A stretch of 64,000 nt of DNA, from the NCBI GenBank assembly GCA_002433895.1, contig DJJA01000003.1, positions 175,788-239,787 of the forward strand, in the 5' to 3' direction. This document shows positions 13,249 through 29,032 of the stretch, piece by piece. Origin of the DNA: Candidatus Gottesmanbacteria bacterium UBA6580 (lineage in GTDB: Bacteria; Patescibacteriota; Microgenomatia; UBA10105; UBA927). The translations under genes and the position numbers were made by a program. The notes under the pieces are model-generated. The model made no database searches. It was not told where the DNA came from and saw nothing but the letters and a program-made list of their open reading frames with translations. The stretch's first letter is position 1. Each line of letters opens with the position of its first letter.

Positions 13249-14055
13249 TTACCTGGCGACATAGTAGTATTCAAACGGCGTAAGCGAAACATAAAACCAT
13301 AAAGGAATAAATGTGATGGGGAAGCTGTTCACGTAGGAGTTTCTTTGCGATTCATACAAGTACACCGCTTTTATTTTATTGATAACACCACGAAGTCCGA
13401 CCCAAATTTTGATCGTCGGATACACCCTTTTGTTTTTGAAATTTACATCTAACGCCATTTCTTCAGGCAGACTGACCGAGTCTAAGATGCGCCGCGGATA
13501 AGACGCGTACCACAATTGTATTGAAGGAAATTTTTTGGTTATTTCAGTGACCACTTCGGAAGTAACCACGTGATCCGGATGACCGTACAATCCGGCCTGA
13601 TCGTACGTAATGATCAGGTCAGGATTACTGCTGACGATAATTTCCTCTACTTCTTCCGTTAGTTTTTCTCTGTGTGCCGCTACGTCACCATCAGGGTACT
13701 CACGAAGAGCAAGCTTGCTCACACCATACACATCGGCTGCTTTTCGCGCCTCCCCGGACCGTATCTGTTTTAGCTTCTCATCTGTTTTCCCTTCGGGATT
13801 ACCTTTTTCGCCTTGGGTTAAAACAATCCACTGTATTTGAGCCTTTTCTTTGGCGAGGCGGGAGATTAGTCCGCCCGAGGTGAGCGCTTCGTCATCGGCG
13901 TGGGGGAACATTATCAGCACCTTTTGTAGGGAAGATAATTTTTCGTCCGCATAGGTAGGTACCGAAAAATCATTGGCATATATAAAACTACCTATCCACA
14001 ACGCCGCGACTGCCAGGATGAAAGAACTGAAGATGATAATAATGCGTTTTTTCAT
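13249..14055 (-). CDS. PIG-L/LmbE-family N-acetylglucosaminyl deacetylase with N-terminal TM anchor
   Basis: IMFPHADDEALTSGG and ITYDQAGLYGHPDHVVTSE are the LmbE zinc-binding motifs. Confidence 0.75.
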   Translation of the reverse strand: MKKRIIIIFSSFILAVAALWIGSFIYANDFSVPTYADEKLSSLQKVLIMFPHADDEALTSGGLISRLAKEKAQIQWIVLTQGEKGNPEGKTDEKLKQIRSGEARKAADVYGVSKLALREYPDGDVAAHREKLTEEVEEIIVSSNPDLIITYDQAGLYGHPDHVVTSEVVTEITKKFPSIQLWYASYPRRILDSVSLPEEMALDVNFKNKRVYPTIKIWVGLRGVINKIKAVYLYESQRNSYVNSFPITFIPLWFYVSLTPFEYYYVAR

Positions 14056-14123
14056 ACCCTTCCCAGGTAGATTTTATCAGAAGTCCGCTGCGAATCACCG
14101 GGGTCTTGTCTCCAGAAGAATTA

Positions 14124-14163
14124 GAAAAAAACAACGACCCTTTCGGGTCATCACTTTTTGTTG
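14124..14163. terminator. Bidirectional hairpin/T-run at left edge of low-GC island
   Basis: Hairpin GACCCTTTCGGGTC flanked by aaaaaaa on the 5' side and ttttgttg on the 3' side. Confidence 0.4.
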
Positions 14164-14309
14164 CTCCGCTCATCTAGGCTCATTTTACCAGCTATTGTAA
14201 TTAATCCTTTTGAGAATATTGCCTACATGAGAGAGTTAGAACAACGATAGGAGGAAATAAAAAGACATAACAGCTCAATTGTTGCCTCAGTAGGAGTATA
14301 ATTTAGATA

Positions 14310-15155
14310 ATGGTAAATATTAACGCACCAGGAATTGAATTTTTTGAGAGTTTCGCAAACGAGATTGAAAGCAAATTCCAACGCATAAAGACCCTTGTGC
14401 CTCATCGAGTTGCCTCTGGCAATTATCATGAGGAAATAATTAGAACTATATTGAGAAATTTTCTAACCAAGAGATATTCGGTTAAAACGGGTTTTATCTA
14501 TAAATCTAACAGCGAAATCAGCAGACAACTTGATATTCTAATCATTGATGAAGATTCTCCTGCCGCATATCTTTTTCAGGAGGGAGATTTTGCGATAGTA
14601 ATACCTGAAGCAGTCATGGCCGTCCTTGAAGTAAAAACAACGCTAAATGCTCCAGATTTCGATGAGGCTTTAGAAAATATCGCTTCTGCGAAAAAACTGA
14701 TGAGGTTCCCAGCTGCAGCAACGGGAATTATTTTTGGCTACGGTGGCACCTCCCCAACAGATAATAATCTTGATAGATGGTACAAAAGGGCGACCCCATC
14801 ATCTTTTAGTGAGAGTGAGAAAAATTTACTTGGACCAAATGCCGTCATGTTTTTTACTGCCGGCTGCTTGCTTGCTCGATACACAGAAGAAGGCAAATGG
14901 GAAAGTGGGGGCAAGTACTATCACAAGCTATTTAGAGACGATTCAGTTAAAAAATCTCCCAGCGATGTGGCATGGCAACTATCTGTCATACTAGCGATGA
15001 CAATTGCTGCTTGTGAAAATGGAGAGATGAGCAGAACTCATATGTTTCCCGCAGGCTATGCGGACAGGCTTATCCAAAGTGAGGGTGGTATGATTAGCCA
15101 TTCAAGATTTGCATTTGGAGAGGGCCTTTCAAGGAGAGAATATGCCTCTCGCTAG
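14310..15155 (+). CDS. PD-(D/E)xK-like nuclease-fold protein resembling the DUF6602 family
   Basis: The N-terminal third reads GNYHEEIIRTILRNFLTKRYSVKTGFIYKSNSEISRQLDILIIDEDSPAAYLFQEGDFAIVIPEAVMAVLEVK. This gives D...(E/D)...EVK spacing typical of restriction-endonuclease-like folds, and matches the DUF6602 signature as I recall it. TATAAT lies 7 nt upstream of the ATG, suggesting a leaderless transcript. The gene is low GC, about 36%. Confidence 0.45.
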   Translation: MVNINAPGIEFFESFANEIESKFQRIKTLVPHRVASGNYHEEIIRTILRNFLTKRYSVKTGFIYKSNSEISRQLDILIIDEDSPAAYLFQEGDFAIVIPEAVMAVLEVKTTLNAPDFDEALENIASAKKLMRFPAAATGIIFGYGGTSPTDNNLDRWYKRATPSSFSESEKNLLGPNAVMFFTAGCLLARYTEEGKWESGGKYYHKLFRDDSVKKSPSDVAWQLSVILAMTIAACENGEMSRTHMFPAGYADRLIQSEGGMISHSRFAFGEGLSRREYASR

Positions 15156-15439
15156 TTACAGACATCCTTAATAACATTTATTAAGGAAATTATTGTTGCA
15201 ATAGTAGAGATTATTGTAAGCACTAATAACCATTTGTTGGTATTACTAGCTTGCCTTTCTAAACTTACTTGATGCATTGCTAATCGCTTAATCAAATGTT
15301 TAATAATATCCAGGTTCTGTTTTTCACCTGCCGGAGTTTTAGGTATAGTATTGGCCTCTCTAATAGCATCCTTTATAAGCTCATCTGATTTTTTGAATTT
15401 TTCTAGGTAGGCTTCTTTTTCGATGTCTTTTTCGTTCAT
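15152..15439 (-). CDS. Small tail-anchored membrane protein (95 aa)
   Basis: Probable start MNEKDIEKEAY at 15439, 5 nt after the stop of the upstream ORF, with AGGA 14 nt upstream. Helical N-terminus and a single C-terminal TM (WLLVLTIISTIATIISLINVI). Confidence 0.4.
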   Translation of the reverse strand: MNEKDIEKEAYLEKFKKSDELIKDAIREANTIPKTPAGEKQNLDIIKHLIKRLAMHQVSLERQASNTNKWLLVLTIISTIATIISLINVIKDVCN

Positions 15440-15443
15440 ATAA

Positions 15444-15908
15444 TTATTTAATCCTGCAAATGTTGCATAAATATGGAAAAATGTTATCAATAAGTGTTAT
15501 CAAATATATTACTATAAATATCCAAATTACTATAAAAGACGCAATTTTTGTATTAATAAAAGCCTCGTTTTTGATTTTATGTATTAAACCTTCAACAAAG
15601 GGATTAATCTGATTTTTATGCCCATGCTTATCTTCAATTGTTCTTGCTAAATCAGTCCAAAACTTAGTCCACATAAAGCCTCTCTTTGTCATTTGAAGCC
15701 ATAGTAAACACAAAATTATTCCTAAAGGGGGAAGAATTTGTTTAACGAGAATTGGAACATTTGAGTTAGGGTTAAGCGTAAGACCAATTAAGGTCATAAA
15801 TATTGTATTTACAACAAGCATTGCATTGTAGCGCTCCCACTGGATTTGTGACTCAGCAATACGCATATTTATATAAGCTTCGTATTCAGACTTAGAGCTA
15901 TTTTTCAT
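15444..15908 (-). CDS. Small 3-TM membrane protein (154 aa)
   Basis: Start MKNSSKSEYEAY at 15908. Three hydrophobic helices. About 30% GC. No homolog recognised. Confidence 0.4.
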   Translation of the reverse strand: MKNSSKSEYEAYINMRIAESQIQWERYNAMLVVNTIFMTLIGLTLNPNSNVPILVKQILPPLGIILCLLWLQMTKRGFMWTKFWTDLARTIEDKHGHKNQINPFVEGLIHKIKNEAFINTKIASFIVIWIFIVIYLITLIDNIFPYLCNICRIK

Positions 15909-15945
15909 ATCAAAAACCACAAAAAACCTGCATCGGGGCAGGTTA
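15909..15945 (-). terminator. Possible minus-strand intrinsic terminator
   Basis: Hairpin AACCTGC-atcggg-GCAGGTT (15925-15944), followed on the minus strand by the U-run ttttttgtggttttt. This would stop read-through from the hsd/CBASS operon, running antisense across the HTH gene. Confidence 0.3.
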
Positions 15946-16153
15946 TATTAAGGCCAGTTTGCTCCCTAGCCCTAAGACTATTATACTGCCTAATTTTAAA
16001 GCTATTTTAACAGCGATTACTAACTCCGCTTATATGGGTGAGATGCGTGCTAGGTGGAACGAAATTAAAAAGTTACGCCAAGAACCAAAATTAGCACTAC
16101 AAGCTAGTATTTGAGGCTAAAGTTGGACAGATTGGACACATATAAAAAAGGCT

Positions 16154-16573
16154 ATGGCAAAACGAAGTGAAATTAAGGAACAACAGGAAAAGTTTATAGC
16201 TGAATTTAAAAGCCTACGCTCGGCCGGTAACGTGTTGGTTGCCTGTCAAACCCTAGGTTATGCGCGTAGCACTGTGTATCATTGGCGAATAATTGATGAG
16301 GGGTTTGCCCACCTTTGGGATGAAACGGTGCTTGATGGATTTGACATACGTGCCGATGAAGCTGAAAACGCCCTACGGTTAGCAATTACCAAAGACCGTA
16401 ATATCACTGCCATTATTTTTACCCTTAAAAACTTACGGCCAGACAGATATAGGGAAAGGTTTGACGTTGAGTATAAAGGTAAGATTGCAAACGAACTAAA
16501 GCAGAACTTTTTAGCTACTTTAAGTAGATTGGGGAAAAATGCTGATGAACAATTACGAAGGAAAAAAATATAG
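16154..16573 (+). CDS. HTH-domain protein (terminase-small-subunit-like or transposase-like HTH)
   Basis: The N-terminus KEQQEKFIAEFKSLRSAGNVLVACQTLGYARSTVYHWR shows the pattern of phage TerS/HTH_Tnp-type helix-turn-helix. It is the only plus-strand gene in a run of minus-strand genes. AAGG is 4 nt upstream of the ATG. Confidence 0.35.
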   Translation: MAKRSEIKEQQEKFIAEFKSLRSAGNVLVACQTLGYARSTVYHWRIIDEGFAHLWDETVLDGFDIRADEAENALRLAITKDRNITAIIFTLKNLRPDRYRERFDVEYKGKIANELKQNFLATLSRLGKNADEQLRRKKI

Positions 16574-16590
16574 CAACGAATATAGGACCC

Positions 16591-17184
16591 CTATTTTTTA
16601 GTAAACACTAATTTACCCCTTGTTTTCCTGTTTTCATCATTGGAGTAATATCCCTCAAGTTTCTTGTTATTTATTACATCTAAATATGTAAAACCCTCGT
16701 GCATACCACCAGATACTGAGTTAAGTAAGGTTTTTGAGCGAGCCTTACTCCGATAAGCATAAACTAAAAACCATTTACCATTTTCCTTTTGTTTGAGCCT
16801 AGCAAAATAACTTTCAAAGTCTGAACTATTGCCAAAGTCACCTTCAATGTATAAGGTTGAGTAGCTTTGAGTTATTGTAGCGATACCTGAGCCCTTTTTG
16901 CCATTATTAAATGTACTTTCATATTTTATTTGCCAACTACCAGTTAATACTGGGTACTCATAAAAACCGACTAGTTTACACAACAAAAATGCCAACCATT
17001 GTTCTTTCCAAAGCCATTTATCCCAAGCGTAATATAACCCATAAATTATGAAGCTCACAGTTCCAACTGACGCAATGAATGAAGCAATGCCATTTCCTAA
17101 AATCCCCCCTATCCATTTAGCTATAACTTGGATTAACGCAACTAATATTACGATTGAGGTGATGTATTTTTGTTGATCTTTCAT
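16591..17184 (-). CDS. 2-TM plus C-terminal beta-rich domain protein, candidate Cap15-like CBASS effector
   Basis: 197 aa. It has two N-terminal TM helices (ITSIVILVALIQVIAKWIGGILG..., ASVGTVSFIIYGLYYAW) and a roughly 130-aa beta-rich C-terminal domain. It overlaps the upstream nucleotidyltransferase gene by 4 nt. Confidence 0.45.
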   Translation of the reverse strand: MKDQQKYITSIVILVALIQVIAKWIGGILGNGIASFIASVGTVSFIIYGLYYAWDKWLWKEQWLAFLLCKLVGFYEYPVLTGSWQIKYESTFNNGKKGSGIATITQSYSTLYIEGDFGNSSDFESYFARLKQKENGKWFLVYAYRSKARSKTLLNSVSGGMHEGFTYLDVINNKKLEGYYSNDENRKTRGKLVFTKK

Positions 17185-18020
17185 ATATTAAAAAATTGGC
17201 GAAAATAACTGTTTGCTAACGTTTCCGACGTTGCCCTTGCCGCGGCATTTAATTGTGGCAACTTATTGGCAATATGTTGCCTGAAGGCTATAAAACTTTG
17301 AGGAGACCATTCATTTTGTGAAATAACTATTTTATCCCCTGCAACAGTTGTGAATGTTGAAACGAAACTTTGACCAACCATATGGCTAAGTATGTTATTT
17401 AGCGAATACGCTAAGTCATTACCAAATGAATTGTCTGTATAGCTATAAACTAAACACTCAATATAAAAAGATGGGGCAATGTTTTTTAAGTTCCAATTAT
17501 TAACATAATTTTTCAACATTCTTACTAACTTTTTATAATTGTTGTTTGTACGCTGGTTTTTAGCTTGCCCGTTAGCAAGATGGGTCTTGGGATAGTTTCT
17601 TATGCTTTGAGCGATAATCAGTGGTTCCCTGTATTGATTAAGTTGAACAGCTGTGGACCTTATTGCAGGAACGATATCTGCTTGTTTGGTATTAAGGTTT
17701 ACTGTTAAACATTTATGACCAATTGTTACCATCCCCATATAGTTTTGATTTGCTTCCAGTTTATTTTTAATGTCATAAAAAAGGTTGCTCGGCTGACTTG
17801 AGCCTGTTAATAGGCTCATAAGTGGGTTATGAACGGCAACTATGTCAACATCGTTAATATCGGATATCGCTGTATCATTAGCGTAGCTTCCTTGCAAAAA
17901 AGTTTCGTAATTCGGTAAAAGTGCCCTAATGTTGTTGTGAAGGGAAGATATATCGGTCATTGTGGTTTGTGAAACCCCGCTTGAAACCTGACTAATTAAT
18001 CCTTGTGATACGTACGACAT
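17181..18020 (-). CDS. CD-NTase/SMODS-like nucleotidyltransferase (candidate cyclic-oligonucleotide synthase)
   Basis: GS...DxD Pol-beta NTase motif (LQGSYANDTAISDINDVDIVAV). A third acidic residue sits in hDhVPa context (KQADIVPA) about 55 aa later. There is a downstream helical region (YKKLVRMLKNYVNNW). 279 aa. The start lies 1 nt after the hsdS stop. Confidence 0.5.
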   Translation of the reverse strand: MSYVSQGLISQVSSGVSQTTMTDISSLHNNIRALLPNYETFLQGSYANDTAISDINDVDIVAVHNPLMSLLTGSSQPSNLFYDIKNKLEANQNYMGMVTIGHKCLTVNLNTKQADIVPAIRSTAVQLNQYREPLIIAQSIRNYPKTHLANGQAKNQRTNNNYKKLVRMLKNYVNNWNLKNIAPSFYIECLVYSYTDNSFGNDLAYSLNNILSHMVGQSFVSTFTTVAGDKIVISQNEWSPQSFIAFRQHIANKLPQLNAAARATSETLANSYFRQFFNI

Positions 18021-18021
18021 A

Positions 18022-19251
18022 TTAGTTATTAAATGTTTTAGCTAAAACTGCTTGGGTTAGTTTTGATACCTTTGCTTCCGCGGCCTCAATTTGCTTTTCA
18101 ACTTTATCTGCAAGCTCAAAATAGCTTTTTACCCTTTTTACTATTTCCTTCTGTTCTTCCAGAATTGGAATTTCAATGGGCAAGTTTCTCAAATCCTCCA
18201 AGTTTATCCCTGTATATGCAACTCCCTTCTGTACGTTTGCTAGCCAATATTGTGAAACAGTTGACCCAATATAATATGCGATAAAATCTGGGAAAACTTT
18301 GCTTTTATCTACTGGGACTACTGCTACCTCGCGGGAAACGTTCCATCCCTTCATTTCAGTTGGGACAGCCACGACACCACCTAGCGTTCCACGCACGTTA
18401 ACCAATACCTCACCGCCCATTAGTATCGTCCTTGAGTAACTTGACGATAAAGTAGGTGAAATTCGTTTTAGTCCATTTAATTCAAAATTCAACCATCGGA
18501 CATTACTTGTTCTAAGACACGGAGTCCCATCTTCAATATGTTCTCCCAACTTAATCACACCATAACTTATACCTTTACCTTTTTCGCATAATTCACCCAA
18601 TGCTTTATTTGCCCATACACTATTTAAGTCTTTTATCGTTGACAGCTGTTTCTTCCGCCAATCCTCGGTAAGTTTTCCGGTAATCGCCGCAGTTAAAATT
18701 GCTTGACGAAAATTATTGAGCTGATTTTTAGCACTAGTTAACTTACTAGCAGTTTTATGGATTGAAATAATTTGGTTATTCAGTAAATCGGCAATTTTAT
18801 TTTGAGTTGTTACATCTGGCAACTTTATTGGGATTGTTTTCATTGCAGATTGTGTTAGTTTCAATCTGGTTGTACCTGCAACATAGTCACTAAAATCAAA
18901 ATAATCCAAGTAGTATTTAATAAACCGATTATTTGAAATATCTTTTCTTGCCCTTAAAACGTGTGCGTGATTATTTACCCAACTTTTGCCGTTGATTATG
19001 TACGCGATTGGCTTGGATTTATCCAAAAAGGGGGCGCCATCTTCGCCCAGAAGCACCAATTCCTCATCAAAAATATAATCGTTAATCCAACCTACCTGAC
19101 CTGTTGCTCCATAATAGGGTACCTCACCAATTCTTTTACTTCTGTCATTTGAGTTAATTGGCACCCTTTGGCCATCTAAAATATCAACACAATCTTTAAG
19201 TTGGTATTCCTTCCAACCATTGTTATTTAGTACCGTCTGTGAATTCTGCAT
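18022..19251 (-). CDS. hsdS: Type I restriction-modification specificity subunit HsdS
   Basis: Two target-recognition domains are separated by the conserved central helix (NKIADLLNNQIISIHKTASKLTSAKNQLNNFRQAILTAAITGKL). The C-terminal conserved repeat is present (LEEQKEIVKRVKSYFELADKVEKQIEAAEAKVSKLTQAVLAKTF). Confidence 0.85.
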   Translation of the reverse strand: MQNSQTVLNNNGWKEYQLKDCVDILDGQRVPINSNDRSKRIGEVPYYGATGQVGWINDYIFDEELVLLGEDGAPFLDKSKPIAYIINGKSWVNNHAHVLRARKDISNNRFIKYYLDYFDFSDYVAGTTRLKLTQSAMKTIPIKLPDVTTQNKIADLLNNQIISIHKTASKLTSAKNQLNNFRQAILTAAITGKLTEDWRKKQLSTIKDLNSVWANKALGELCEKGKGISYGVIKLGEHIEDGTPCLRTSNVRWLNFELNGLKRISPTLSSSYSRTILMGGEVLVNVRGTLGGVVAVPTEMKGWNVSREVAVVPVDKSKVFPDFIAYYIGSTVSQYWLANVQKGVAYTGINLEDLRNLPIEIPILEEQKEIVKRVKSYFELADKVEKQIEAAEAKVSKLTQAVLAKTFNN

Positions 19252-20644
19252 ATATTTTTTCCAAGCTATGTGTAGCTTCCTTTAGTTCAGACAGTACGCT
19301 TTTAATAAGTTCTTCAGGTTTGCCAATATCATCACCATTTTCAATATCTTCGTCTTTAATCCACTTAAAACCATCCAACTTGTAATGCTTTTCTTTAACC
19401 TGAGCGATGGTAAACATTTTCCAACGATTTTCTTTGGAGTCAGCTTCTTTACGCGGTGATTGACCATTAGGATTGTCGCCGTAACACTTTTCAAACCCCT
19501 CAAAATGTTTGTGGGTTAGCGGCCTATCTTTAACCGTTATTCCCGGTACATTAGTGCGCGCATCATAAATCCACACGTTTTCCGTGGGTATTCCTTTGGT
19601 AAAAAACACTACGTTGGCTTTAACACCTTGGCTATAAGGGGTAAACGTACCGTTAGGTAAACGTAAAATTGTGTGCAGGTTGCAATCCTGCATCAAAATC
19701 TTAAACACTTCTGCCGCTTGGTCGCCGAAAAGCACGTTGTCGGGCAGTACAACCGCCGCACGGCCTCCCGGTTTAAGGATGGTAAGGATATGTTGCGCGA
19801 AGTTTAGCTGTTTATTGCTTGTTGCAACGGTAAAGTCCTGCCGCTCCGGTACTTGGTTAGCCCCCTTAGTGCCAAATGGCGGGTTTGTCAGTACCACATC
19901 GTACCTGTCACCGCGGTCAGGCTCATAAATGCTGTCGCCTAATCGTATGTTGGAAATAATACCGTGCAGGTATAGGTTCATTAACGCTAACCTGCGTGGC
20001 CTTGCTACTAGCTCCGTGCCATAATAAGTTTTTTCCCTTATACGCTTAATGTCTTCGCGGTTAATTGCACCTTTGCTTTGGTGCATTAACCACTCATAGG
20101 CGCTTAACAAAAATCCACCTGTACCTGCGGCTGGGTCACATATCGTAAAGTCTTTTATTTCCCTTGGGTCGGGTTTCATTACATTGACTATTGCTTGGAT
20201 TAGGACACGGGGAGTGAAGTATTGCCCTGCGCCCTTTTTACCCTCGGCGGCTGATTTTTCTAGTAAACCCTCGTAGGCTTGGGCTTTAACATCAATGTTT
20301 AACCCCGACCAATCAATTTCATCAATAAGGTCAATCAAACGTTTAAGGTTTACTGGTTTGGTGAACTTAGATAGCGCTTCAACAAAAATCGCCCCAAGTA
20401 AACCTTCTTGTCGTGCTAAACCACGCAATAGCTCACTATAAAAATCAATTAACTCAGTGCCAGATTTGGATTTAAGCACTTCCCACGAGTACTTCTTAGG
20501 TATGTCTGCACCCTTTTCCTCCGCCATTTTCAAAAAAAGCAAATAGGTAAGTTGTTCCACATAGTCACCATAATCCATACCGTCGTGCCGGAGTACGTGG
20601 CAGTAACCCCATAATTTGTTAACAATGTTTGTATTAGTTTGCAT
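19223..20644 (-). CDS. hsdM: Type I R-M N6-adenine DNA methyltransferase HsdM
   Basis: LTNPPFGTK (NPPF motif IV), the SAM-binding motif CDPAAGTGGFL, and the HsdM N-terminal domain are present. Confidence 0.9.
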   Translation of the reverse strand: MQTNTNIVNKLWGYCHVLRHDGMDYGDYVEQLTYLLFLKMAEEKGADIPKKYSWEVLKSKSGTELIDFYSELLRGLARQEGLLGAIFVEALSKFTKPVNLKRLIDLIDEIDWSGLNIDVKAQAYEGLLEKSAAEGKKGAGQYFTPRVLIQAIVNVMKPDPREIKDFTICDPAAGTGGFLLSAYEWLMHQSKGAINREDIKRIREKTYYGTELVARPRRLALMNLYLHGIISNIRLGDSIYEPDRGDRYDVVLTNPPFGTKGANQVPERQDFTVATSNKQLNFAQHILTILKPGGRAAVVLPDNVLFGDQAAEVFKILMQDCNLHTILRLPNGTFTPYSQGVKANVVFFTKGIPTENVWIYDARTNVPGITVKDRPLTHKHFEGFEKCYGDNPNGQSPRKEADSKENRWKMFTIAQVKEKHYKLDGFKWIKDEDIENGDDIGKPEELIKSVLSELKEATHSLEKIYAEFTDGTK

Positions 20645-23336
20645 AGGCGTATACCTGTGGCATCGTCGTATTTAATTGGGTAATAAATGGCAACAATCTG
20701 TCGTCAAAATCCGCGTTAATACGCTTAAAACTTCCACCTAAATCTGTAAATATCGGCATTTCATCAAAGTCCTCCTTATCAATGGTTAAGTTTTCAGCCA
20801 AATGTAGTTTTATAAGCTCAATCCATTGTTCCTGTTTTTCATTTAACTTTTGTTTTCCAATAACCTTTTCAACCGCAAGGTCAACCCGTTCTTTGGCTGA
20901 CAATAACGGCTCGTCTTTGGCGGCGTGTTTGACCATTGAAATAATGTCTGCCAAGGGGTATTTATAAGCACGGCGCAAGTTGTCTTCAGTAAATCGCTCA
21001 GGTTGTTTGGATAGTGAGGTGCGCAATTCTGTTAAGGCTTTGGTATTCCACCCTTGGGGCTTACTTAACACAATGCTTATCGCCTCAATATGCTCGGGGT
21101 TATCTTTTACAAACCGCTCAAACTGTTTTAGGTAATCCTCAGGCTTTAGTTCGCGCCCGTCGGTGGTCCTAAAGACAAACTCGGATGTAACTGTGTCTTC
21201 CTGCTCAATCGCCCTTATAAAGCGTTTAGGCGGCCTTGGGTAGTTTTTAAGTAGGTCAATAAAGTTCGGGTCTGTCAGCGTCTTTAATGTGCCAACCCTA
21301 TCCTCACTCAACATATCCGGCAACTTTTTGGCAAACGCGCTTACATCCCCATCGGGTATAAAGTTGGCAAACATTTCCCGCCCTTCAGCGGTGGTATTTT
21401 TAGCAATGCGTTGCAGTCGTTTTACCAAACAGCGTGTGTTGTACTCAACCTCAATGTTGTCGTTTATAGCTTTTATAATTTCTTCAATACTTCTTGTTGG
21501 GTTGGTTGGTGTTACTTGGGTTATACCAGTGCTATTCTTAAATGCCTCAAGCAATGTTCCATCAAAACAATCAAACACGGTAAAGTGTGTTTTTGGCGGT
21601 GTTCCTAAACCGTTAGGGAAGTTTGTGCAAAGACGTGTACCGCGCCCAAGCATTTGCTCAAATAAGATACGGGACTTAACCGGCCGTAAAAACACGATGT
21701 TTTCAATTGAGGGTACATCAATACCGGTTGATAACATATCAACGGTAACTGCAATATGCGGTTCAGGTCTATTCCTAAACTCCTTTATGCGGGTTAATGG
21801 CCTATCCACGGTTGGTGAACCGGTAATTTTCTGTACAAAGGCATCCCCTCGGCCAAATGTATCGCGGCAAATATCAACTAACTGGTCGGCGTGTGAAGTA
21901 TGAGCTAAATCGTTATCAGCAAATATAAGCGTTTTGGGAAACCGGCCAAACTCCTTTTCCTGTTCCAAGGCATACTTAGCAAACTCCTGTATGATTTTGC
22001 GGTTGCTGTCTGGTGCTGTAATATCCCGTTCAACGTCAGCCACATCAAAATGTCGTTCGTCCTCCAATAAATCAAGTTGTTGTGCGCCGGTTTGTGTATC
22101 AACCTGTTCAACTTCCTCGCCTTCTTTTAGGGTAATGCCTTGTATGCGTACACCTGATGCTATCTTTACCGCGTCATAATCAACCAAATATCCATCTTGC
22201 ACAGCCCGCTCATAAGTGTAGCGGTATGCAATTTCCTTAAAGTAACTGGTGGTGTGGGCGGCAGGTGTAGCAGTTAAGCCTATCTTTGTGGCGTCAAAGT
22301 GGTCCAATACTCCGCGCCATTTACTTACTTCGTGGCTTGTATAACCCCTGTGGCACTCATCAGCAATAATCGTGTCAAACGCGTTAATCGGCATTTCAAT
22401 TTTGTCTGCATCATCATCTGGGTCGTAGTCGCCGCTATAACTAAACATACCCTCACGGCCATACAGGTTTATTTGCATCCGTTGGATGGTTGAAATATAC
22501 ACAAACACTTGGTTACCGTCAGGGTCAGTTAAATAGCCTGTGGGAATGACATTAAAATCAACCTTTTCATTGGCCTCAAAATCGTCTACCTTAAAACGTT
22601 GGCTATACACTTGGTAAATCTGGTTAAACTTTAGGCCGTTTTCGGCTTCATACGCGGCAAACTCCATTACTGCTTGGGCGGCAAGGGCTTTTCTGTCAAC
22701 CAAAAACAAAACGCGCTTACTAACACCGGACTTTAGCAGGCGGTAAACTAACGAGGCAATTGTGTAGGTTTTACCCGTACCGGTTGCCATAGCAATCAGC
22801 ATTGACCGTTTATTTTCAGTAATGTTTTTTTCAATCGCTGTTATAGCCTCACGTTGGTAGTGGCGGAGCTTACTATTGTTCGGTGGATTGGCAGTAAACC
22901 AACGTGCGTTACTTTGCGTGTCGCTAGTTAGGTACTCAATTAACGCTTTAGGCGTATGGAACTCCTGTACTTGGCGTGAGCGGCTTGGGGTAATGCGCAA
23001 ATCCTCATACCAAATAACTTCACCATTAGTGGAGTAAATAAACGGGACTGTTAAACCTTGTTGTTGTGCACCTTTAACATAACGATGGGCTTGCTGTAAG
23101 ACGTTTTGCGGACCAAGGCTTATCTTTTTTGCCTCAACAAACGCAATTAACTTACCATTTGCAAATAAGGCATAATCCGCCGGTCCGGTAGTGGTCATAT
23201 ATTCGGTAACCGCTACCTTATGCAAGGTTGAAGTATCCATCCCCTCCTTATAGGGGATTATCTTATCCCAACCAGCCTTTTTTAATTTATCGTCAATCCA
23301 CTTTTTACGAGTGGCTTGCTCGTCAATAATATCCAT
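20634..23336 (-). CDS. hsdR: Type I R-M restriction endonuclease/helicase subunit HsdR
   Basis: 900 aa. The N-terminal nuclease domain is followed by SF2 helicase motifs (MATGTGKTYT Walker A, DECHRG DEAH box). Confidence 0.9.
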   Translation of the reverse strand: MDIIDEQATRKKWIDDKLKKAGWDKIIPYKEGMDTSTLHKVAVTEYMTTTGPADYALFANGKLIAFVEAKKISLGPQNVLQQAHRYVKGAQQQGLTVPFIYSTNGEVIWYEDLRITPSRSRQVQEFHTPKALIEYLTSDTQSNARWFTANPPNNSKLRHYQREAITAIEKNITENKRSMLIAMATGTGKTYTIASLVYRLLKSGVSKRVLFLVDRKALAAQAVMEFAAYEAENGLKFNQIYQVYSQRFKVDDFEANEKVDFNVIPTGYLTDPDGNQVFVYISTIQRMQINLYGREGMFSYSGDYDPDDDADKIEMPINAFDTIIADECHRGYTSHEVSKWRGVLDHFDATKIGLTATPAAHTTSYFKEIAYRYTYERAVQDGYLVDYDAVKIASGVRIQGITLKEGEEVEQVDTQTGAQQLDLLEDERHFDVADVERDITAPDSNRKIIQEFAKYALEQEKEFGRFPKTLIFADNDLAHTSHADQLVDICRDTFGRGDAFVQKITGSPTVDRPLTRIKEFRNRPEPHIAVTVDMLSTGIDVPSIENIVFLRPVKSRILFEQMLGRGTRLCTNFPNGLGTPPKTHFTVFDCFDGTLLEAFKNSTGITQVTPTNPTRSIEEIIKAINDNIEVEYNTRCLVKRLQRIAKNTTAEGREMFANFIPDGDVSAFAKKLPDMLSEDRVGTLKTLTDPNFIDLLKNYPRPPKRFIRAIEQEDTVTSEFVFRTTDGRELKPEDYLKQFERFVKDNPEHIEAISIVLSKPQGWNTKALTELRTSLSKQPERFTEDNLRRAYKYPLADIISMVKHAAKDEPLLSAKERVDLAVEKVIGKQKLNEKQEQWIELIKLHLAENLTIDKEDFDEMPIFTDLGGSFKRINADFDDRLLPFITQLNTTMPQVYAYAN

Positions 23337-23350
23337 ACTTATTTTTATCT

Positions 23351-23548
23351 TTACTTTTTATTCTTATTTTCCTCAATGTAACGCTCAATGTCTTCCAATT
23401 TATAGCGCCTATCACCGACACCCCTGCGTGAACCAATACGGATGGAGGGCAATCGTCCTTCATTATCCCAGCGCCTTAATGTTTCGGGGTTTACGCCTAA
23501 AATATCAGCGGCTTGTTTAATTCTTAGTAGTTTAACGACCGGTTTCAT
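23351..23548 (-). CDS. Excisionase/MerR-family HTH DNA-binding protein
   Basis: LRIKQAADILGVNPETLRRWDNEGRLPSIRIG is typical of Xis/HTH_17 proteins. It ends 14 nt before the hsdR start. Confidence 0.6.
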   Translation of the reverse strand: MKPVVKLLRIKQAADILGVNPETLRRWDNEGRLPSIRIGSRRGVGDRRYKLEDIERYIEENKNKK

Positions 23549-23629
23549 AACTTACACATAATTATACATCGTCAGGCTTGTTTTTGCTCCTCCAAAATTC
23601 ACTTTTACTCCAGTAGACTGTCCTTCACT

Positions 23630-23827
23630 ATGAACTACAGGGATTTGATGGCGGAAGCACGGGCGATACATTTTGCTATGCACCACGGTAGCATTACCTA
23701 TGAGGAAGCACAGGTAAAAGTTAAGCCGGTTTTGGAAATACTAAATAGGAAGAATGCCAAGATAGCGAAAAGACACGGAGTAACCCCACGGAAGTTTACA
23801 TTCCAAAGCCTAGGACGAACTTTTTAG
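23630..23827 (+). CDS. Small hypothetical protein (65 aa)
   Basis: ORF only; divergent from the excisionase-like gene. Confidence 0.3.
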   Translation: MNYRDLMAEARAIHFAMHHGSITYEEAQVKVKPVLEILNRKNAKIAKRHGVTPRKFTFQSLGRTF

Positions 23828-24036
23828 AAAAACGTACTTAGGGATGTTTTTAATGCTTTGGCAATTTTTTCCAGCACCTCAAGGGATGGTGTGTACCTGC
23901 CTTGCTCAATATACCCCATATAAACACGACTGACATTAACTTTATCGGCTAAATCATTTTGGGTTAATCCGCACACCTTCCGCCTTTTTTGGATTTTTTT
24001 ACCTAGCACTTTTGGCAATCTGGCATTTTTCCGCAT
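23824..24036 (-). CDS. XRE-family HTH transcriptional regulator
   Basis: LTQNDLADKVNVSRVYMGYIEQGRYTPSLEVLEKIAKAL is a classic Cro/C1 HTH. ORF 23824..24072; the likely start is MRKN at 24036. Confidence 0.65.
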   Translation of the reverse strand: MRKNARLPKVLGKKIQKRRKVCGLTQNDLADKVNVSRVYMGYIEQGRYTPSLEVLEKIAKALKTSLSTFF

Positions 24037-24162
24037 ATTGTAATTGTGGAAAACGCATCGTCCATAATCCACTAAGCCAGACTAAGCATTTAGCCTTAAA
24101 AAGGGCTTGTTTTTATGCTAAGCATCATTTAGCATTATCTTATTGAGGCAAGGAGGTGAAAT

Positions 24163-24450
24163 ATGGACGTATTACTTAAAACAAGGTGTACCAAAGGCCA
24201 CTTAATCGTTTACGCAGATAAGGTTGCAATTGAAGCGCTTAAGCTACTTGGTTATCAACAATCAAACGCACTCGCCTACAAACAGATTACGGGAGTGGAA
24301 GTAAAAATGACCCAACCGGACATACTCGGCTTAGGACAAGCTACGGTAACTATCCATAGCGCTGGTGGCCAAACACTTATAGCTGACAGGGTAAAACTTA
24401 AGGATGCTAAGGAAGTTGAAAAACTAATCCAGGAACGAATTGCCAAATAA
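24163..24450 (+). CDS. Hypothetical protein (95 aa)
   Basis: ORF with RBS ggaggtg. No recognised domain. Confidence 0.35.
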   Translation: MDVLLKTRCTKGHLIVYADKVAIEALKLLGYQQSNALAYKQITGVEVKMTQPDILGLGQATVTIHSAGGQTLIADRVKLKDAKEVEKLIQERIAK

Positions 24451-24525
24451 TAGTGCGTAAATAAGCTCCATTCAATCGTATTCTTCGTCCGTTTTTCTTA
24501 TAATTGTCTTAATAAGGATAAAAAT

Positions 24526-25317
24526 ATGGATAAAAATGACCCTATCATTAGGGCGGAACTTGAGGAAATAAAAAATTGGCTAATAAAAAGTAGCGAGGTT
24601 GAAGTGGATGAAAAACAGGAATTGGTTGTTTCCATCGTTGCTTTAATTACAAACAAGCGGTTTCAACAAAACATACGACAATTACGGAAAAAATACCAAA
24701 TACCAAAGACTTGGTATACGACTGAAAAACAAAATGATTTATATGCTGAATACTTAAAACACTGCAAGGCACACCCCGACGCACCTACGATGCCGTACGA
24801 TGAACCAATTGTGAACCTGTGTAAAAGAATAGGCGTAGACGTAAAAAAGTACTCCGATTTTGTATTGGGCTATTTATACTACGGCTACGTTTTACCGCTT
24901 AAACCCGACCAAGTTGATTGGTATCAGCCGCTTTTTACAAAGGACGAGCATCGTTACAAAGCAAATATTGAGTTAGATTATGGGGACAGCACTGAGGAAA
25001 AGGAAGAAATGGAAATTAAAAAAGGCTATATACGATTTTACGGCGACACTACCCCCAATCAACTTACCCGCTTCATTAAGGATAATTGGCGGGGCATACA
25101 AGCTATCCAGTCACAACTTAAACCTTATCAGCACACGAAAAAACATAGTCAATTTAGGCGTGACATACTTATATATTTATTTCATTTGTTTGGGAATAAA
25201 TCGCCTGAAATAATGGATAAGATAGTCACAGACGAATTGAATTATCCCCTAGATTATGTTGAGGTACGGCAAATAATAAGTGATTTGAAAAATCGGATAA
25301 ACAAAATCCTTCCATAG
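24526..25317 (+). CDS. Hypothetical protein (263 aa)
   Basis: Long ORF in the island regulatory/replication module. No recognised domain. Confidence 0.4.
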   Translation: MDKNDPIIRAELEEIKNWLIKSSEVEVDEKQELVVSIVALITNKRFQQNIRQLRKKYQIPKTWYTTEKQNDLYAEYLKHCKAHPDAPTMPYDEPIVNLCKRIGVDVKKYSDFVLGYLYYGYVLPLKPDQVDWYQPLFTKDEHRYKANIELDYGDSTEEKEEMEIKKGYIRFYGDTTPNQLTRFIKDNWRGIQAIQSQLKPYQHTKKHSQFRRDILIYLFHLFGNKSPEIMDKIVTDELNYPLDYVEVRQIISDLKNRINKILP

Positions 25318-25536
25318 CTTCAGGTGTGAGTAAAACTCGTTAGGTTTTTCTTTATATTTTCCCCTCCATAAATCCGATACTGATGGTGTAAATCAGTATG
25401 GATAAACAGATAAACATCACCAATAAAGATAACAACATAACGCAAGCCGCAGAACAGTGGTTTAACCTTGCCCTAATGTTGATAAAGATTAAACGCCAAC
25501 AAAAGATGGCGCAATTAAAGATAAAGAATAACGACT

Positions 25537-25776
25537 ATGAGCACAGATAAAACTTTTCAAACTGATAACTTCTTATTAGCTACTTTCCTACTTAGTCAGT
25601 CGTGCAACCTCATTTCCATTGACCGCAGTAATGTTCGCCGTATGGTGTTTGCGTTTGAAAATAACTCCCGCCGAAAAACTTTAACTGAAGATTTTATGGC
25701 TTATAAAAGCGCCATTGAGCCACATAGGTTCTTTAGTGCACAGAAGGATTTACGCGCACTAATCCACCAAAGATAG
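25537..25776 (+). CDS. DUF5659-family small protein (common in phages/integrative elements)
   Basis: FQTDNFLLATFLLSQSCNLISIDRSNVRRMVFAFENN matches the DUF5659 N-terminal pattern (F.t.d..LA.fL...g..L..IDr.dp.r.vF.Fe). Confidence 0.45.
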   Translation: MSTDKTFQTDNFLLATFLLSQSCNLISIDRSNVRRMVFAFENNSRRKTLTEDFMAYKSAIEPHRFFSAQKDLRALIHQR

Positions 25777-25810
25777 GTTCAATCCAGTTGAATTAAAGAT
25801 AAAGATAAAA

Positions 25811-26242
25811 ATGAAAAATTACACGAAGATACCAAATGAAATATTAACTCAATCGCAACTTACCATACCAGCTAGGTACTTATACTGCGCATTGCTAAAG
25901 TATTGTGGCAATGACGATAAGTGTTTTCCAAGTCAGCAGACTTTAGGAAAAGACCTTGGAAGGACACCGCGATACGTTAGGGAATTACTAGGGGAACTTA
26001 TAAGCGCCGGTTTGGTTTATAAAAAAAGGCTGGGTTACAACAGGGCAAATACTTATACGGTATCCAAAGACTTAAAGACATACTGGAACCACGGTTCCTA
26101 TCATATCGGTACAGTATTTCCCCTCCATCAAGGAAATACAGTGCCAGATAAAAGTACTTATATAAAAGGAAAAGGTAAAAGGAGTATTAAGGGTTTGGAA
26201 AAAATGCGAAAAGCGTTAATTGAACAAAGGATTATTAAATAG
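25811..26242 (+). CDS. HTH_36-type winged-helix protein (replication-initiator/phage-regulator-like)
   Basis: IPARYLYCALLKYCGNDDKCFPSQQTLGKDLGRTPRYVRELLGELISAGLV is typical of PF13730. Confidence 0.5.
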   Translation: MKNYTKIPNEILTQSQLTIPARYLYCALLKYCGNDDKCFPSQQTLGKDLGRTPRYVRELLGELISAGLVYKKRLGYNRANTYTVSKDLKTYWNHGSYHIGTVFPLHQGNTVPDKSTYIKGKGKRSIKGLEKMRKALIEQRIIK

Positions 26243-26349
26243 GAGTTTACTTTTTATAAACGACTATTTACTATTGAATAATTAAGTATAATTAAATGTA
26301 ATACTATGAGGCAAGATATAAATTATAAATTATCCAACAAGGAGGAAAT

Positions 26350-27852
26350 ATGAAGGACGAAGTATATGTTTATATAAGGGTTTCAACGTCGGAGCAGGCA
26401 GACGAGGGGTTTTCTATTGATAACCAAAAACGAGCCTGTAAGGAGTTTTGCGAGGCACGAGGTTACCACATAAAGCGGATGTTTGTTGAGGATGGGCGAA
26501 GCGCTAGGACTACCGAAAGACCCGCTTTACAGGAAATGCTCAAGGCCTTGGTAGATACGCCAGTTGGCGCAATTGTTATTTATAAGATTGATAGATTTGC
26601 CCGTAACGTAACCGACTTTTCAAGGCTTTATAACGAGTTTAAGACAAAGGGAATACAGCTCATATCAGTAAGCGAGGGCAACTTAAGCGAGGGGACAAGT
26701 TTAGTGCCAAACATTTTTGCCAGTGTTGCGCAATGGGAGAGCGAAGTTAATAGTCAACGAACACGCGATGCGTTAATGCAAAAGTTTAGGGAAGGCTGGC
26801 AACCAACCCCACCCCCTATTGGGTATAGGAGTGTTGGCGCTGACAGGGAACGAAAAACTTGTGAACCAGACCCATACACTGCACCGATAATACGGGAGCT
26901 ATTTGAGCTATATTCAACCGGCAACTACTCAATTTATGAGTTACAAAATTGGTTAGCCGAACGGGATATTGTTAGTAAAACTGGCACACCCATAGGTCAC
27001 AGTGTAATTGGAACAATACTTAATAATCGGTTTTATTATGGTTGGATTAGCTGGCACGGTGAGGGGAAAACGGGCAAACATATGCCAATTATTAGTAAGG
27101 ACTTATTTGATACGTGCCAATATGTATTAGCAAAACACCGTAACTTCCTAACACGTAATCGCATTCACCAGTTTTTACTCCGCGGGTTCGTACACTGTGC
27201 TGAGTGTGGCCAACGATATACCGCGGAGTGGCATTTTAAGCCTAGATTTACTAAACGAAACGGCAAGATTGCTTATTACCATTGCCCCAAGATGAACCGC
27301 AATGGTTGCCCTGCGCCATACGTGGAGGTGGGTGATCTTGAAAAGTTGGTATTCGACACTGTAAAAGGTGTGCAATTTAGCCAAGATTTTATTGATGCTG
27401 TGGTTGATAAAGCGCGTAGATTTGTTGATGACAGTAGGAAGCGTGCAGGTGGCGATATGCAAGCGTGTATTAACCAGCGCACTGCACTTGAGTTTAAGCG
27501 CAACAAACTTGAAGACGCCTTACTAGATAACACGATTGACCGTACTGTTTTTAAGCGCAAGCACGATGAAATTGAAGCGCAGATTAGGTTAATTGACGAC
27601 CGAACACGCGAGATTGAAGCACAAAGTCACGTTGACATTAAACTTGTTGAGGACGTGCTTAACTTTACCCGCGATGTAGGCAGAACATACGACGAAGCGC
27701 CTGACTTTTTGAAACGACATTTTTTACGCTTCTTTTTTGAAAAGATAATGGTAAAAGATAAGAAGATAGCGGAAGTTATTTACACACCAATAATAGCGCC
27801 GTTAGTGGCAAACCACTCGGTTATAATAAAAAACCTTATGCTCCCCCGGTAG
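26350..27852 (+). CDS. Large serine recombinase (integrase)
   Basis: Resolvase catalytic domain (VYVYIRVSTSEQADEGFSIDNQ...IYKIDRFARN), recombinase domain, and a Zn-ribbon (CAECGQRYTAEWH...YYHCPKMNRNGC). 500 aa. The last 12 nt overlap the tRNA-Asn 3' end on the opposite strand. Confidence 0.9.
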   Translation: MKDEVYVYIRVSTSEQADEGFSIDNQKRACKEFCEARGYHIKRMFVEDGRSARTTERPALQEMLKALVDTPVGAIVIYKIDRFARNVTDFSRLYNEFKTKGIQLISVSEGNLSEGTSLVPNIFASVAQWESEVNSQRTRDALMQKFREGWQPTPPPIGYRSVGADRERKTCEPDPYTAPIIRELFELYSTGNYSIYELQNWLAERDIVSKTGTPIGHSVIGTILNNRFYYGWISWHGEGKTGKHMPIISKDLFDTCQYVLAKHRNFLTRNRIHQFLLRGFVHCAECGQRYTAEWHFKPRFTKRNGKIAYYHCPKMNRNGCPAPYVEVGDLEKLVFDTVKGVQFSQDFIDAVVDKARRFVDDSRKRAGGDMQACINQRTALEFKRNKLEDALLDNTIDRTVFKRKHDEIEAQIRLIDDRTREIEAQSHVDIKLVEDVLNFTRDVGRTYDEAPDFLKRHFLRFFFEKIMVKDKKIAEVIYTPIIAPLVANHSVIIKNLMLPR

Positions 27853-27912
27853 GATTCGAACCTACAACCGTCTTCTTAACAGGAAGCTGCGCTACCGTTG
27901 CGCCACAGGGGA
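27841..27912 (-). tRNA. tRNA-Asn (anticodon GTT)
   Basis: Folded by eye. Acceptor TCCCCTG/CGGGGGA (one G-U), D-arm GCGC-AACGGTA-GCGC, anticodon loop CTGTTAA (GTT), T-arm GTAGG-TTCGAAT-CCTAC, discriminator G. CCA is not encoded. Confidence 0.75.
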
Positions 27913-27930
27913 ATGTGTTTCCTCTAAGTG

Positions 27931-27968
27931 CTACCTCCACCAGTTGGCGGAGCGCTCAGGGGAACGAT
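27931..27968. repeat. Hairpin repeat R1 (imperfect palindrome plus diverged tRNA-Asn 5'-end-like tail)
   Basis: R1 is ctacctccaccagttggcggagcgctcaggggaacgat; compare R2 at 28233-28270. It encodes the C-terminal RSPERSANWWR* of the GIY-YIG protein. Confidence 0.55.
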
Positions 27969-28212: not shown

Positions 28213-28232
28213 GGCTATATTATATCGCTGCG

Positions 28233-28270
28233 CTACCTCCGCCAGCTGGCGGAGCGCCACAGGGGAATGT
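28233..28270. repeat. Hairpin repeat R2 (perfect palindrome ctccgccAGCTggcggag) fused to an exact copy of the first 14 nt of tRNA-Asn plus 4 nt of 5' flank
   Basis: R2 is ctacctccgccagctggcggagcgccacaggggaatgt. The tail gcgccacaggggaatgt is identical to 27900-27916. Confidence 0.6.
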
Positions 28271-28319
28271 TAAGAACAAGGGCTATTATATCACGAAATT
28301 TGTTGTATACTGATGCTAT

Positions 28320-28750: not shown

Positions 28751-28786
28751 TGGCAAAAATTATGAATGAAAGGAGGTGGGTGATAT

Positions 28787-29023: not shown

Positions 29024-29032
29024 ATGGGGAGT

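Follow-up and report, generated by a model that had tools for sequence, protein, structure and literature searches.

Elements moved by large serine recombinases (LSRs), such as the phiC31, Bxb1, A118 and TP901-1 prophages, SCCmec with ccr, and skin/SPbeta, share one enzyme architecture, which consists of an RVSTxxQ serine catalytic domain, a recombinase domain, a zinc ribbon and a long coiled coil. Their attachment (att) sites are short, are made of imperfect inverted half-sites, and have few bases common to attL and attR. Tandem accretion of integrative and conjugative elements (ICEs) with cis-mobilisable elements (CIMEs) is known from the ICESt3 type of Streptococcus. In a 2020 survey, serine integrases were described as "not known for targeting tRNA genes" (PMC7192596). 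The SSV-type "suicidal" type I integrases, which are tyrosine recombinases stated to be restricted to archaea, are split by integration into two inactive pseudogenes (PMC7253208). In this study, I analysed a 64,000-nucleotide stretch (hereafter the window) of contig DJJA01000003.1 from Candidatus Gottesmanbacteria bacterium UBA6580, a Microgenomates bacterium of the candidate phyla radiation (CPR)/Patescibacteria. With a probability of about 0.8, the segment 14168-27844 is a tandem pair of site-specific integrative elements, A and B, inserted at a tRNA-Asn(GTT) gene, and the LSR gene of the pair spans the attP site.

The inserted DNA is 13,677 bp in length and enters the tRNA-Asn(GTT) gene 3-5 nt before the 3′ terminus. 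A preliminary description of the window, made from the sequence alone, had placed the borders at 14124 and 27852; the measured borders are 14168 and 27844. Its central claim, a low-GC integrative island with defence genes and an LSR at the edge of tRNA-Asn, is borne out by a related contig without the block (L021), by another with an alternative LSR (L020), and by the LSR homologues, whose 3′ ends overlap the 3′ end of a tRNA-Asn in 12 of 14 loci. (Related contigs and loci are denoted by L numbers and homologous proteins by P numbers.) The DNA is indeed foreign and integrative, but it is not a single island, since an attP-like junction divides it into two tandem elements. The reported drop in GC content is real, although the flanks had been put too high at "about 50%", especially the left one. 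The GC content is 39.7% over 14168-27844, 44.8% in the left flank and 48.2% in the right flank. Computed on the final borders (within 2 nt), it is 36.6% in element A and 40.2% in element B, and 36.7%, 42.1% and 39.6% in the CBASS block, hsdSMR and the backbone, respectively. In 2-kb windows, the mean is 39.6 ± 2.8% inside and 47.3 ± 2.4% outside, and the tetranucleotide distance to the flank background (3-kb windows) is 0.33-0.47 inside and 0.186 ± 0.021 outside, with a maximum of 0.246. The compositional discontinuity that had been proposed as a check is thus present in both profiles.

The attL and attR sites at the ends of the inserted DNA are listed in Table 1. An earlier attL candidate at 14052-14070 was rejected. 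Its cccaggtagatt match (14062-14073) lies directly upstream of the PIG-L start codon in a flank block common to L021, and about 1.2 such matches are expected by chance per 64 kb per strand. A hairpin does exist at the left border, but it sits in flank DNA 3 nt outside the attL core and is also found in L021; in the unoccupied site it probably serves as the native tRNA-Asn terminator. An Rfam scan of the island and its borders matched only the tRNA. In the terms of a published definition of integrative genetic elements (PMC7192596), the inserted DNA has an attL, an attR and a contained int gene, and the site is unoccupied in a relative, L021, which carries a filler and not a clean attB.

What kind of recombination produced these ends? 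Only TGCTCC (14162-14167 and 27839-27844) is common to the attL and the attR of the array. No long direct repeat of the tRNA 3′ end was found at the left border in the window or in 13 related loci, with up to 7 mismatches allowed in 24 nt. Such an absence is expected of an LSR and speaks against an island of the tyrosine-integrase kind. At all loci, the P motif GGTTATAATAA precedes GCTCC, the plus-strand reading of the tRNA 3′ end, by 9-10 nt, and the B′ arm of attR is the acceptor and T arm of the tRNA. The P′ ends of the elements can also be aligned and share a conserved block of about 45 nt. A search with the pattern GCTCC, 10-14 nt, TTATTATAVC (up to 3 mismatches) gave two matches in the 64-kb window (14163 and 15961) versus 0.4 expected, and the 15961 site is closer to the family pattern than the 14163 site. 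Further matches were found at L037:1371, L036:3066, L030:108, L032:3686 and L032:11475, those in the four contigs being at the expected distance upstream of the LSR. The half-sites GGTTATAATAA and TTATTATAVC are symmetric about GCTCC in eight attP sites, natural or reconstructed. The crossover probably takes place at TC/CC of the core, the centre of this symmetry.

The 15961 match belongs to the internal junction (Table 1), where a P remnant, a core and a P′ motif follow one another in the same architecture as in the attP of a circular relative (L040) and in a junction of L032. Thus, two tandem elements are present in the window. The P remnant GGTTATATTAA and the 9 nt before the 15961 core correspond to the last 25 nt or so of a lost LSR gene. 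Element A, which has no recombinase, is either a remnant or a cis-mobilisable element; it may be a deletion product of a full element, or may ride on the LSR of element B. A minus-strand terminator-like hairpin at 15925-15944 (AACCTGCcccgatGCAGGTT and a T-run) reaches into the start of element A's P-arm remnant and may mark the deletion point of its lost LSR gene. Tandem arrays were also found in L039 and L046. The former has a type III restriction-modification (R-M)-like element (ResIII helicase and N6_N4 methyltransferase) followed by a Qat-like element (KAP NTPase, QatB, QueC-like protein and TatD), and the latter has two elements with mostly non-defence cargo. In L032, a 512-kb Daviesbacteria contig, the LSR runs directly into a P-core-P′ site (11450-11500) and not into a tRNA, a second core with a P′ site (3661-3712, an attL candidate) lies 7.8 kb upstream, and no tRNA was found within 10 kb. 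This locus may be a longer tandem array or may use a different target.

The LSR gene ends in the tRNA gene. As the preliminary description had noted, its stop codon (TAG, 27850-27852) lies inside tRNA-Asn; it is 11-13 nt from the tRNA 3′ end. The tRNA sequence supplies this stop and the two codons before it, giving the C-terminus ..ML-PR*. When the P side of attR was joined to the P′ side of attL at GCTCC, an in-frame extension of the LSR, 39-60 codons long, resulted in 5 of the 5 independent elements with both ends, and the extensions end in (F)xN..Y.GELRQRW.EIKK(L). In L032, the spacer of the P arm is one base shorter and the frame on the P′ side is correspondingly shifted, a compensating change. 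The tail has a ratio of nonsynonymous to synonymous polymorphism (pN/pS) of 0.33 in the LSR frame (22 codons, 8 sequences); the other two frames have a pN/pS of about 1.0 and 13-14 stop codons. A tail Arg codon is CGT in the window and AGG or AGA elsewhere. That the LSR stop lies within the tRNA is not incidental and is the mark of an attP-spanning gene truncated by integration. The detached exon of element B is intact, and that of element A is decayed (Table 1).

The reconstructed 547-aa enzyme was searched against 5.8 billion proteins, and contiguous full-length LSRs were found (P0044, P0008 and P0028). P0008 and P0028 are the upstream LSRs of tandem arrays. The gene for P0044 (538 aa) lies on three contigs of 9,676 nt, one from each of three SRA runs (L040-L042); these contigs are exact rotations of one another with 30-nt terminal overlaps and thus form a 9,646-bp circle. 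The circle has the backbone of the family, described below, a KAP-NTPase cargo, and an attP inside the LSR ORF. In the AlphaFold model of P0044, confidence is high to about residue 492, and the tail consists of a low-confidence linker and a terminal helix (521-537). Since the linker and helix are outside the confident fold, integration removes a C-terminal appendage and not a folded domain. The truncated 500-aa enzyme of the window, which keeps all folded domains by this model, is probably still catalytically competent.

The window enzyme is a bona fide LSR. The catalytic Resolvase domain (Pfam 1.1e-34, residues 5-149) has the nucleophile motif YIRVSTSEQ at residues 8-16 (RVSTSEQ), followed by the Recombinase (3.2e-15) and Zn_ribbon_recom (9e-12) domains. 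The homologue P0044 matches the catalytic domain of TP901-1 integrase by phmmer (1.8e-17), its AF2 model has long helices at 344-391 and 397-440, and the top Foldseek matches of the model are full-length serine integrase-att complexes, namely Bxb1, PhiC31 and A118. The circle of the sister element and the alternative occupants of the site indirectly suggest that the LSR of the window may catalyse attP x attB integration and, with an RDF, excision. A scan of the GTDB species representatives revealed homologues with 57-80% identity in the 14 Microgenomates/Patescibacteria genomes mentioned above (Daviesbacteria, Roizmanbacteria, Levyibacteriota and Paceibacterota). In 5 of the 12 tRNA-Asn loci, the anticodon loop is split by a group I intron (Rfam RF00028, 56-85 bits), and ARAGORN misses these tRNAs. 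In total, 362 database proteins match the LSR at E ≤ 1e-30, and at least 74 of 99 anchored database homologues end near ..L(P/R)(R/D/G)* or read into DSN.EP, which is the translated tRNA T-arm sequence GGATTCGAACC. Some homologues (P0019, P0051, P0052 and P0053; P0014, P0037 and P0107) have different conserved tails at the C-terminus, such as ..L(A)(K/R)WDDYRKADW....P.......Q.LL and ..LPL.D.F.N..IEFG. These may be alternative attP-spanning tail exons in sister subfamilies.

The same sequence was recovered from many public assemblies by exact-protein look-ups, and the island sequence is 100% identical across many samples; an identical copy occurs in the UBA assembly GCA_002343365.1. L021, a Logan contig, consists of 13855-14159 (96.7% identity), 149 bp of filler, and 27840-31997 (99.7%). 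An empty tRNA-Asn site in relatives had been proposed as a check; L021 lacks the 13.7 kb but has the filler and no clean attB. The filler (L021:305-453) lies between imperfect 22-nt copies of the tRNA 3′ end in direct orientation (TCCTAGCTTCCCCGGTAGGATC / TTCTAGCTCCCCCGGTAGGATTC), contains a terminator hairpin of its own, and has neither an Rfam match nor a P′ motif. A different kind of element, perhaps one with a tyrosine integrase, may have left it as a scar. In L020, the right flank is 99.6% identical, and another LSR (L020:3-1520, 24% identity) lies left of the tRNA; it ends in ..MLPR* at the same tRNA-Asn position without the GGTTATAATAA P motif. Either its use of the target is convergent or the att-proximal end has been exchanged. 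With the window, L020 and L021 thus reveal at least three states of the tRNA-Asn site in the population. Contig ends at about 15045-15120 and at 26304 were rejected as strain variants, since the unmatched ends are Nextera adapter sequence. The contigs L003, L005, L006 and L012 end in this adapter (CTGTCTCTTATACACATCT), and such ends mimic strain-variant breakpoints. The breaks at 27868 and 27893 are probably an assembler effect (k = 31, and an assumed k = 55) of the real branch point at 27839/27840.

Element B is a complete member of a widespread element family of roughly 8-12 kb (Table 1). The family backbone comprises HTH_17 (helix-turn-helix), XRE, two ORFs without a known family, DUF5659, an HTH_36 initiator-like protein and the LSR, and it holds a variable cargo slot; the L039 homologue of the HTH_36 protein also matches DnaB_2. 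The genes named in the preliminary description (DUF6602, hsdRMS, the CBASS pair, HTH_17, XRE, DUF5659, HTH_36 and the 500-aa LSR) are backed by Pfam and PADLOC. Its statement that the cargo is entirely defence is too wide, as the 8xMP protein, the 95-aa ORF and the 139-aa ORF have no PADLOC match. In the cargo slot of element B lie a type I cyclic oligonucleotide-based antiphage signalling system (CBASS), a type I R-M system, and an ORF resembling small terminase subunits (TerS). The CBASS is a CD-NTase and a single effector (Cap15) in overlapping genes (16591-18020), which makes it type I; no match to further CBASS accessory genes (Cap2/Cap3, HORMA/TRIP13) was found among the island proteins with Pfam and PADLOC. 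HsdR, HsdM and HsdS are contiguous (18022-23336), as in type I R-M. Neither Pfam nor PADLOC gives a match for the 139-aa TerS-like ORF, and related elements do not conserve it. The cargo would protect the host against phage. The cargo of the relatives includes type I R-M (L024, L029), an OLD/Gabija-like ATPase with type III R-M (L025), a Mokosh MkoA-like gene (L030), HerA with a methyltransferase (L037), a Qat-like set (L039) and the KAP NTPase (L040). No capsid, tail, large terminase, lysis or conjugation gene was found among the ORFs of 14168-27844 with Pfam and PHROG, so that the array does not qualify as a prophage. No recognisable recombination directionality factor (RDF) is present. The members of the family are small integrative elements that are possibly replicative.

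Table 1. Coordinates of the features of the tandem array at tRNA-Asn(GTT) and of related loci (positions in the window unless a contig is named)
Feature	Position	Strand	Evidence or remark
Hairpin terminator	14126-14159	-	15-pair stem, T-run on minus strand; flank DNA; conserved in L021
attL of element A (B arm, core, P′ arm)	14140-14189	+	core TGCTCC 14162-14167 (GCTCC 14163-14167)
P′ motif of attL, TCATTTTACC	14180-14189	+	12 nt past GCTCC
Decayed tail exon of element A	14164-14250	+	..AYMRELEQR*; conserved Trp codon TGG changed to TAG
Element A, 1.8 kb, att-flanked, no recombinase	14168-15965	.	GC 36.6%
DUF6602 protein, N-terminal half NucC-like PD-(D/E)xK nuclease	14310-15155	+	Pfam DUF6602 8.6e-25; PADLOC PD_DExK 1.8e-29, NucC 3.7e-20
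95-aa ORF, no family match	15152-15439	-	
8xMP family membrane protein, 154 aa as called	15444-15908	-	Pfam PF24838 1.1e-13
Internal attP-like junction A/B	15941-15987	+	P remnant GGTTATATTAA 15941-15951, core GCTCC 15961-15965, P′ motif CTATTATACT 15978-15987
Detached 3′ exon of element B LSR	15962-16114	+	49 codons past core, LSR frame, ends ..AYMGEMRARWNEIKKLRQEPKLALQASI*; intact
Element B, 11.9 kb, LSR-mobilised integrative element (predicted)	15966-27844	.	GC 40.2%
139-aa ORF, weakly like small terminase subunits	16154-16573	+	PHROG 4044 3.9e-13, PHROG 309 1.1e-07
CBASS effector, Cap15-type two-transmembrane (2-TM) protein	16591-17184	-	Pfam Cap15_CD_rec 7.1e-14; PADLOC 2TM effector 2.8e-25
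CBASS CD-NTase (SMODS cyclase)	17181-18020	-	Pfam SMODS 6.4e-09; PADLOC cyclase 3.3e-32
HsdS, type I R-M specificity subunit	18022-19251	-	Specificity_I 1.3e-65
HsdM, type I R-M methyltransferase	19223-20644	-	MTase_I 2e-170
HsdR, type I R-M restriction subunit	20634-23336	-	REase_I 2.5e-100
HTH_17/MerR-type small DNA-binding protein, excisionase-like	23351-23548	-	conserved backbone; same place in circle L040
XRE/Cro-CI type repressor	23824-24072	-	
Two backbone ORFs, 95 aa and 263 aa, no family match	24163-25317	+	
DUF5659 protein, conserved backbone	25537-25776	+	present in L039, L040, L046
HTH_36 winged-helix protein, like replication-initiator N-terminal domain	25811-26242	+	Pfam HTH_36 2.5e-09; PHROG 270 replication initiation 3.5e-11
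LSR, integrated C-terminally truncated form, 500 aa	26350-27852	+	Pfam Resolvase, Recombinase, Zn_ribbon_recom
attR (P arm, core, B′ arm)	27819-27870	+	P motif GGTTATAATAA 27819-27829; core GCTCC 27840-27844
tRNA-Asn(GTT), integration target, intact	27840-27912	-	ARAGORN; Rfam tRNA 61.9 bits
Group I introns in related tRNA-Asn genes	L025:11535-11794, L027:11528-11729, L030:11522-11741, L031:11522-11757, L036:11522-11713		Rfam RF00028

The genes of element A (14310-15920) form a compact module that is very rich in AT (28-37% GC) and is assigned to no PADLOC system. The 8xMP gene is always beside element B (8 contigs), and a literature search on "8xMP" returned unrelated PDB codes only. The DUF6602/95-aa/8xMP module may be an uncharacterised defence or toxin module. 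On the other side of the array, directly upstream of tRNA-Asn (region 27913-28275), a GIY-YIG nuclease gene is located on the minus strand (27931-28260, Pfam 2.4e-15). It is bracketed by direct repeats (27927-27960 and 28228-28270), each of which resembles the 5′ part of the tRNA (TTCCCCTGTGGCGC...GTAGCGCAGC) with the perfect palindrome TCCGCCAGCTGGCGGA replacing the D-loop. The arrangement could be a mobile homing-endonuclease cassette, or a scar left by such a cassette. Farther away, a tRNA-Ile with the anticodon TAT (UAU) is encoded at 57441-57513. The UAU anticodon is uncommon for the reading of AUA in bacteria, which usually employ a lysidine-modified CAU tRNA.

As the LSR gene spans attP, the circular form encodes an enzyme of about 538-548 aa ending in a linker and the conserved amphipathic helix Y.GELRQRW.EIKK. 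Integration moves the last 49 codons or so to the far end of the element, and the integrated LSR then ends in the two residues and the stop supplied by the tRNA. The anatomy, its conservation across the family, the full-length genes in the circle and at tandem junctions, and the coding constraint on the tail were all observed directly. Some observations weigh against the overall reading. Exact-pattern scans of JGI metagenome contigs and IMG/VR gave no attP junction of the window element (B alone, or A and B together), and such a scan of the JGI metagenome contigs gave no clean empty attB. L021, the sole unoccupied relative, has no clean attB either, and its 22-nt repeat is not what an LSR would produce. 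The 9,646-bp circle might have been assembled from a tandem duplication and not from an episome. The tail of P0044 has a low pLDDT of 43-64, so that its structure and function are tentative; the crossover dinucleotide is deduced from the symmetry and the 6-nt shared core. As for the cargo, L031, L035 and L036 have no PADLOC match and no recognisable defence genes, and L046 has metabolic-looking genes. Thus, the family is not exclusively a defence carrier.

Could the array be one composite island of 13.7 kb, in which 15941-15987 is a meaningless relic and any mobile unit is the whole of 14168-27844? A and B occur together in all 8 contigs with the 8xMP gene, the near-empty strain L021 lacks both, and the GC content is low throughout. 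However, the internal junction has a full attP architecture with the correct spacings, followed by an intact conserved tail exon, whereas at the outer attL (14163) the P′ motif is decayed and the tail exon contains a stop, so that joint excision of A and B would leave the LSR with a defective tail. The same junction is seen again in tandem arrays of L032, L039 and L046. I therefore regard the single composite unit as quite improbable. It is extremely unlikely that the P′-end sequence is an independent small gene or a regulatory site at the DNA level, with its continuity with the LSR in circles being incidental. In the integrated state it does form a free-standing 51-codon ORF with a TTG start, and AlphaFold gives low confidence to it as a part of the LSR. 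This TTG, however, lies inside the recombination core without an evident ribosome-binding site, the LSR frame is kept in all five reconstructed attP sites (in one of them with compensating shifts on both sides), gene callers join the tail to the LSR in the circle and at tandem junctions, and purifying selection acts exactly in the LSR frame.

Granting a tandem pair with an attP-spanning LSR gene, is it still mobile, and by what means? The array may be a fixed relic, in which integration cost the LSR a tail that it needs, so that no excision follows and the DNA now serves as a host defence locus. The missing attP and attB junctions, the 100% identity across samples and the clear decay of element A would all suit such a relic, and SSV-type integrases are inactivated by integration in the same manner (PMC7253208). 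Nevertheless, this outcome seems somewhat unlikely. The truncated LSR keeps its catalytic, recombinase, zinc-ribbon and coiled-coil domains and a folded region of about 50 residues (about 442-492 in the P0044 model), all ORFs of element B including the detached tail exon are intact, and a sister element has been recovered as a circle. In the same population, other strains have a different element or almost nothing at the site, which indicates turnover there. Another view is that element B is a phage satellite of the phage-inducible chromosomal island (PICI) type, with helper-induced excision, an initiator of its own, TerS-like packaging and defence genes as cargo. Its size of about 12 kb, the integrase, the Xis-like HTH_17, the XRE repressor, the replication-initiator-like HTH_36 protein, the matches of the 139-aa ORF to small-terminase PHROGs and the lack of structural genes are in keeping with this. 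I consider it unlikely, as the TerS-like ORF has no Pfam match, no TerS-like protein occurs in ten P′-proximal and cargo ORFs of five related elements, element B has no gene for capsid remodelling, primase or packaging interference, no helper phage is known, and IMG/VR has no junction match.

For a mobile tandem pair, the exchange of the C-terminus might modulate the activity or directionality of the LSR. It is tentatively proposed, as a possibility that I would not yet favour, that this exchange is a built-in directionality or regulatory switch of a serine integrase. The full-length enzyme would be made only from the circle or from a tandem junction, and its GELRQRW.EIKK helix would favour or license attP x attB integration. 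The tail-less enzyme, made from the integrated copy, would have different properties; it might carry out attL x attR excision without a separate RDF, or might be silent until a second element lands in tandem. If so, the "suicidal integrase" logic of archaea would have its first counterpart in bacteria and in serine recombinases, and the family would be a naturally RDF-free, tRNA-targeting LSR family from CPR bacteria. A change of the C-terminus on integration is a candidate for the control of LSR directionality, which is relevant to those who use serine integrases in genome engineering, and att sites of about 50 bp with a universally conserved tRNA half-site are possibly useful. The mobile elements and the immune repertoire of the ultra-small CPR bacteria are poorly known, and this family is present in at least 14 Microgenomates species representatives and carries CBASS, R-M, Qat, Mokosh-like and Gabija/OLD-like genes. 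In a search of the literature on LSR/tRNA elements of CPR bacteria and on serine integrases with attP in their own ORF, no description of the family was found, nor any paper on a tRNA-targeting LSR with attP inside its own ORF.

Defence islands at tRNA genes are familiar, and it is the vehicle that is unusual on two counts, the tRNA target and the attP in its own ORF; a 2020 paper describes the latter trait as confined to archaeal tyrosine integrases. The gene sets of the type I CBASS and the type I R-M agree with the models of PADLOC and Pfam, and the systems as such look ordinary; what is unusual is the carrier and the host. Like other tRNA-linked islands and CIMEs, the array is a low-GC segment at a tRNA 3′ end with a tRNA-proximal integrase and defence cargo, and the att-flanked element A without a recombinase, in tandem with the complete element B, recalls the accretion of ICEs and CIMEs. 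The classical tRNA islands, in contrast, have tyrosine integrases and direct repeats of 15-50 bp, while the ends of the window array share 6 nt and there are no conjugation genes. In its enzyme architecture and its att sites, the family agrees with the known LSR elements, and it differs from them in the tRNA gene target, the attP inside the 3′ end of the recombinase ORF, the CPR host and the lack of a recognisable RDF. In the mycobacteriophage BPs system, the tail removed from the repressor is a degradation tag. More generally, in the integration-dependent immunity of the phages BPs, Brujita and Charlie, attP lies in the 3′ part of a regulatory gene, and the free and integrated forms differ in their C-termini and in their properties (PMC4557955). 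There, the split gene is that of the repressor and the integrase is a tyrosine recombinase, whereas in the window the recombinase itself is split. The SSV-type integrases (SSV1, pTN3, pT26-2) likewise have attP in the integrase ORF, a translated att site and a tRNA target; their gene is also parted to the two ends of the element, and tandem integration restores an intact gene (PMC7253208). The window family, however, has a bacterial serine recombinase from which only the last 45-50 residues or so are detached, with every folded domain left in place. It is therefore an analogue of the SSV type and not a member of it.

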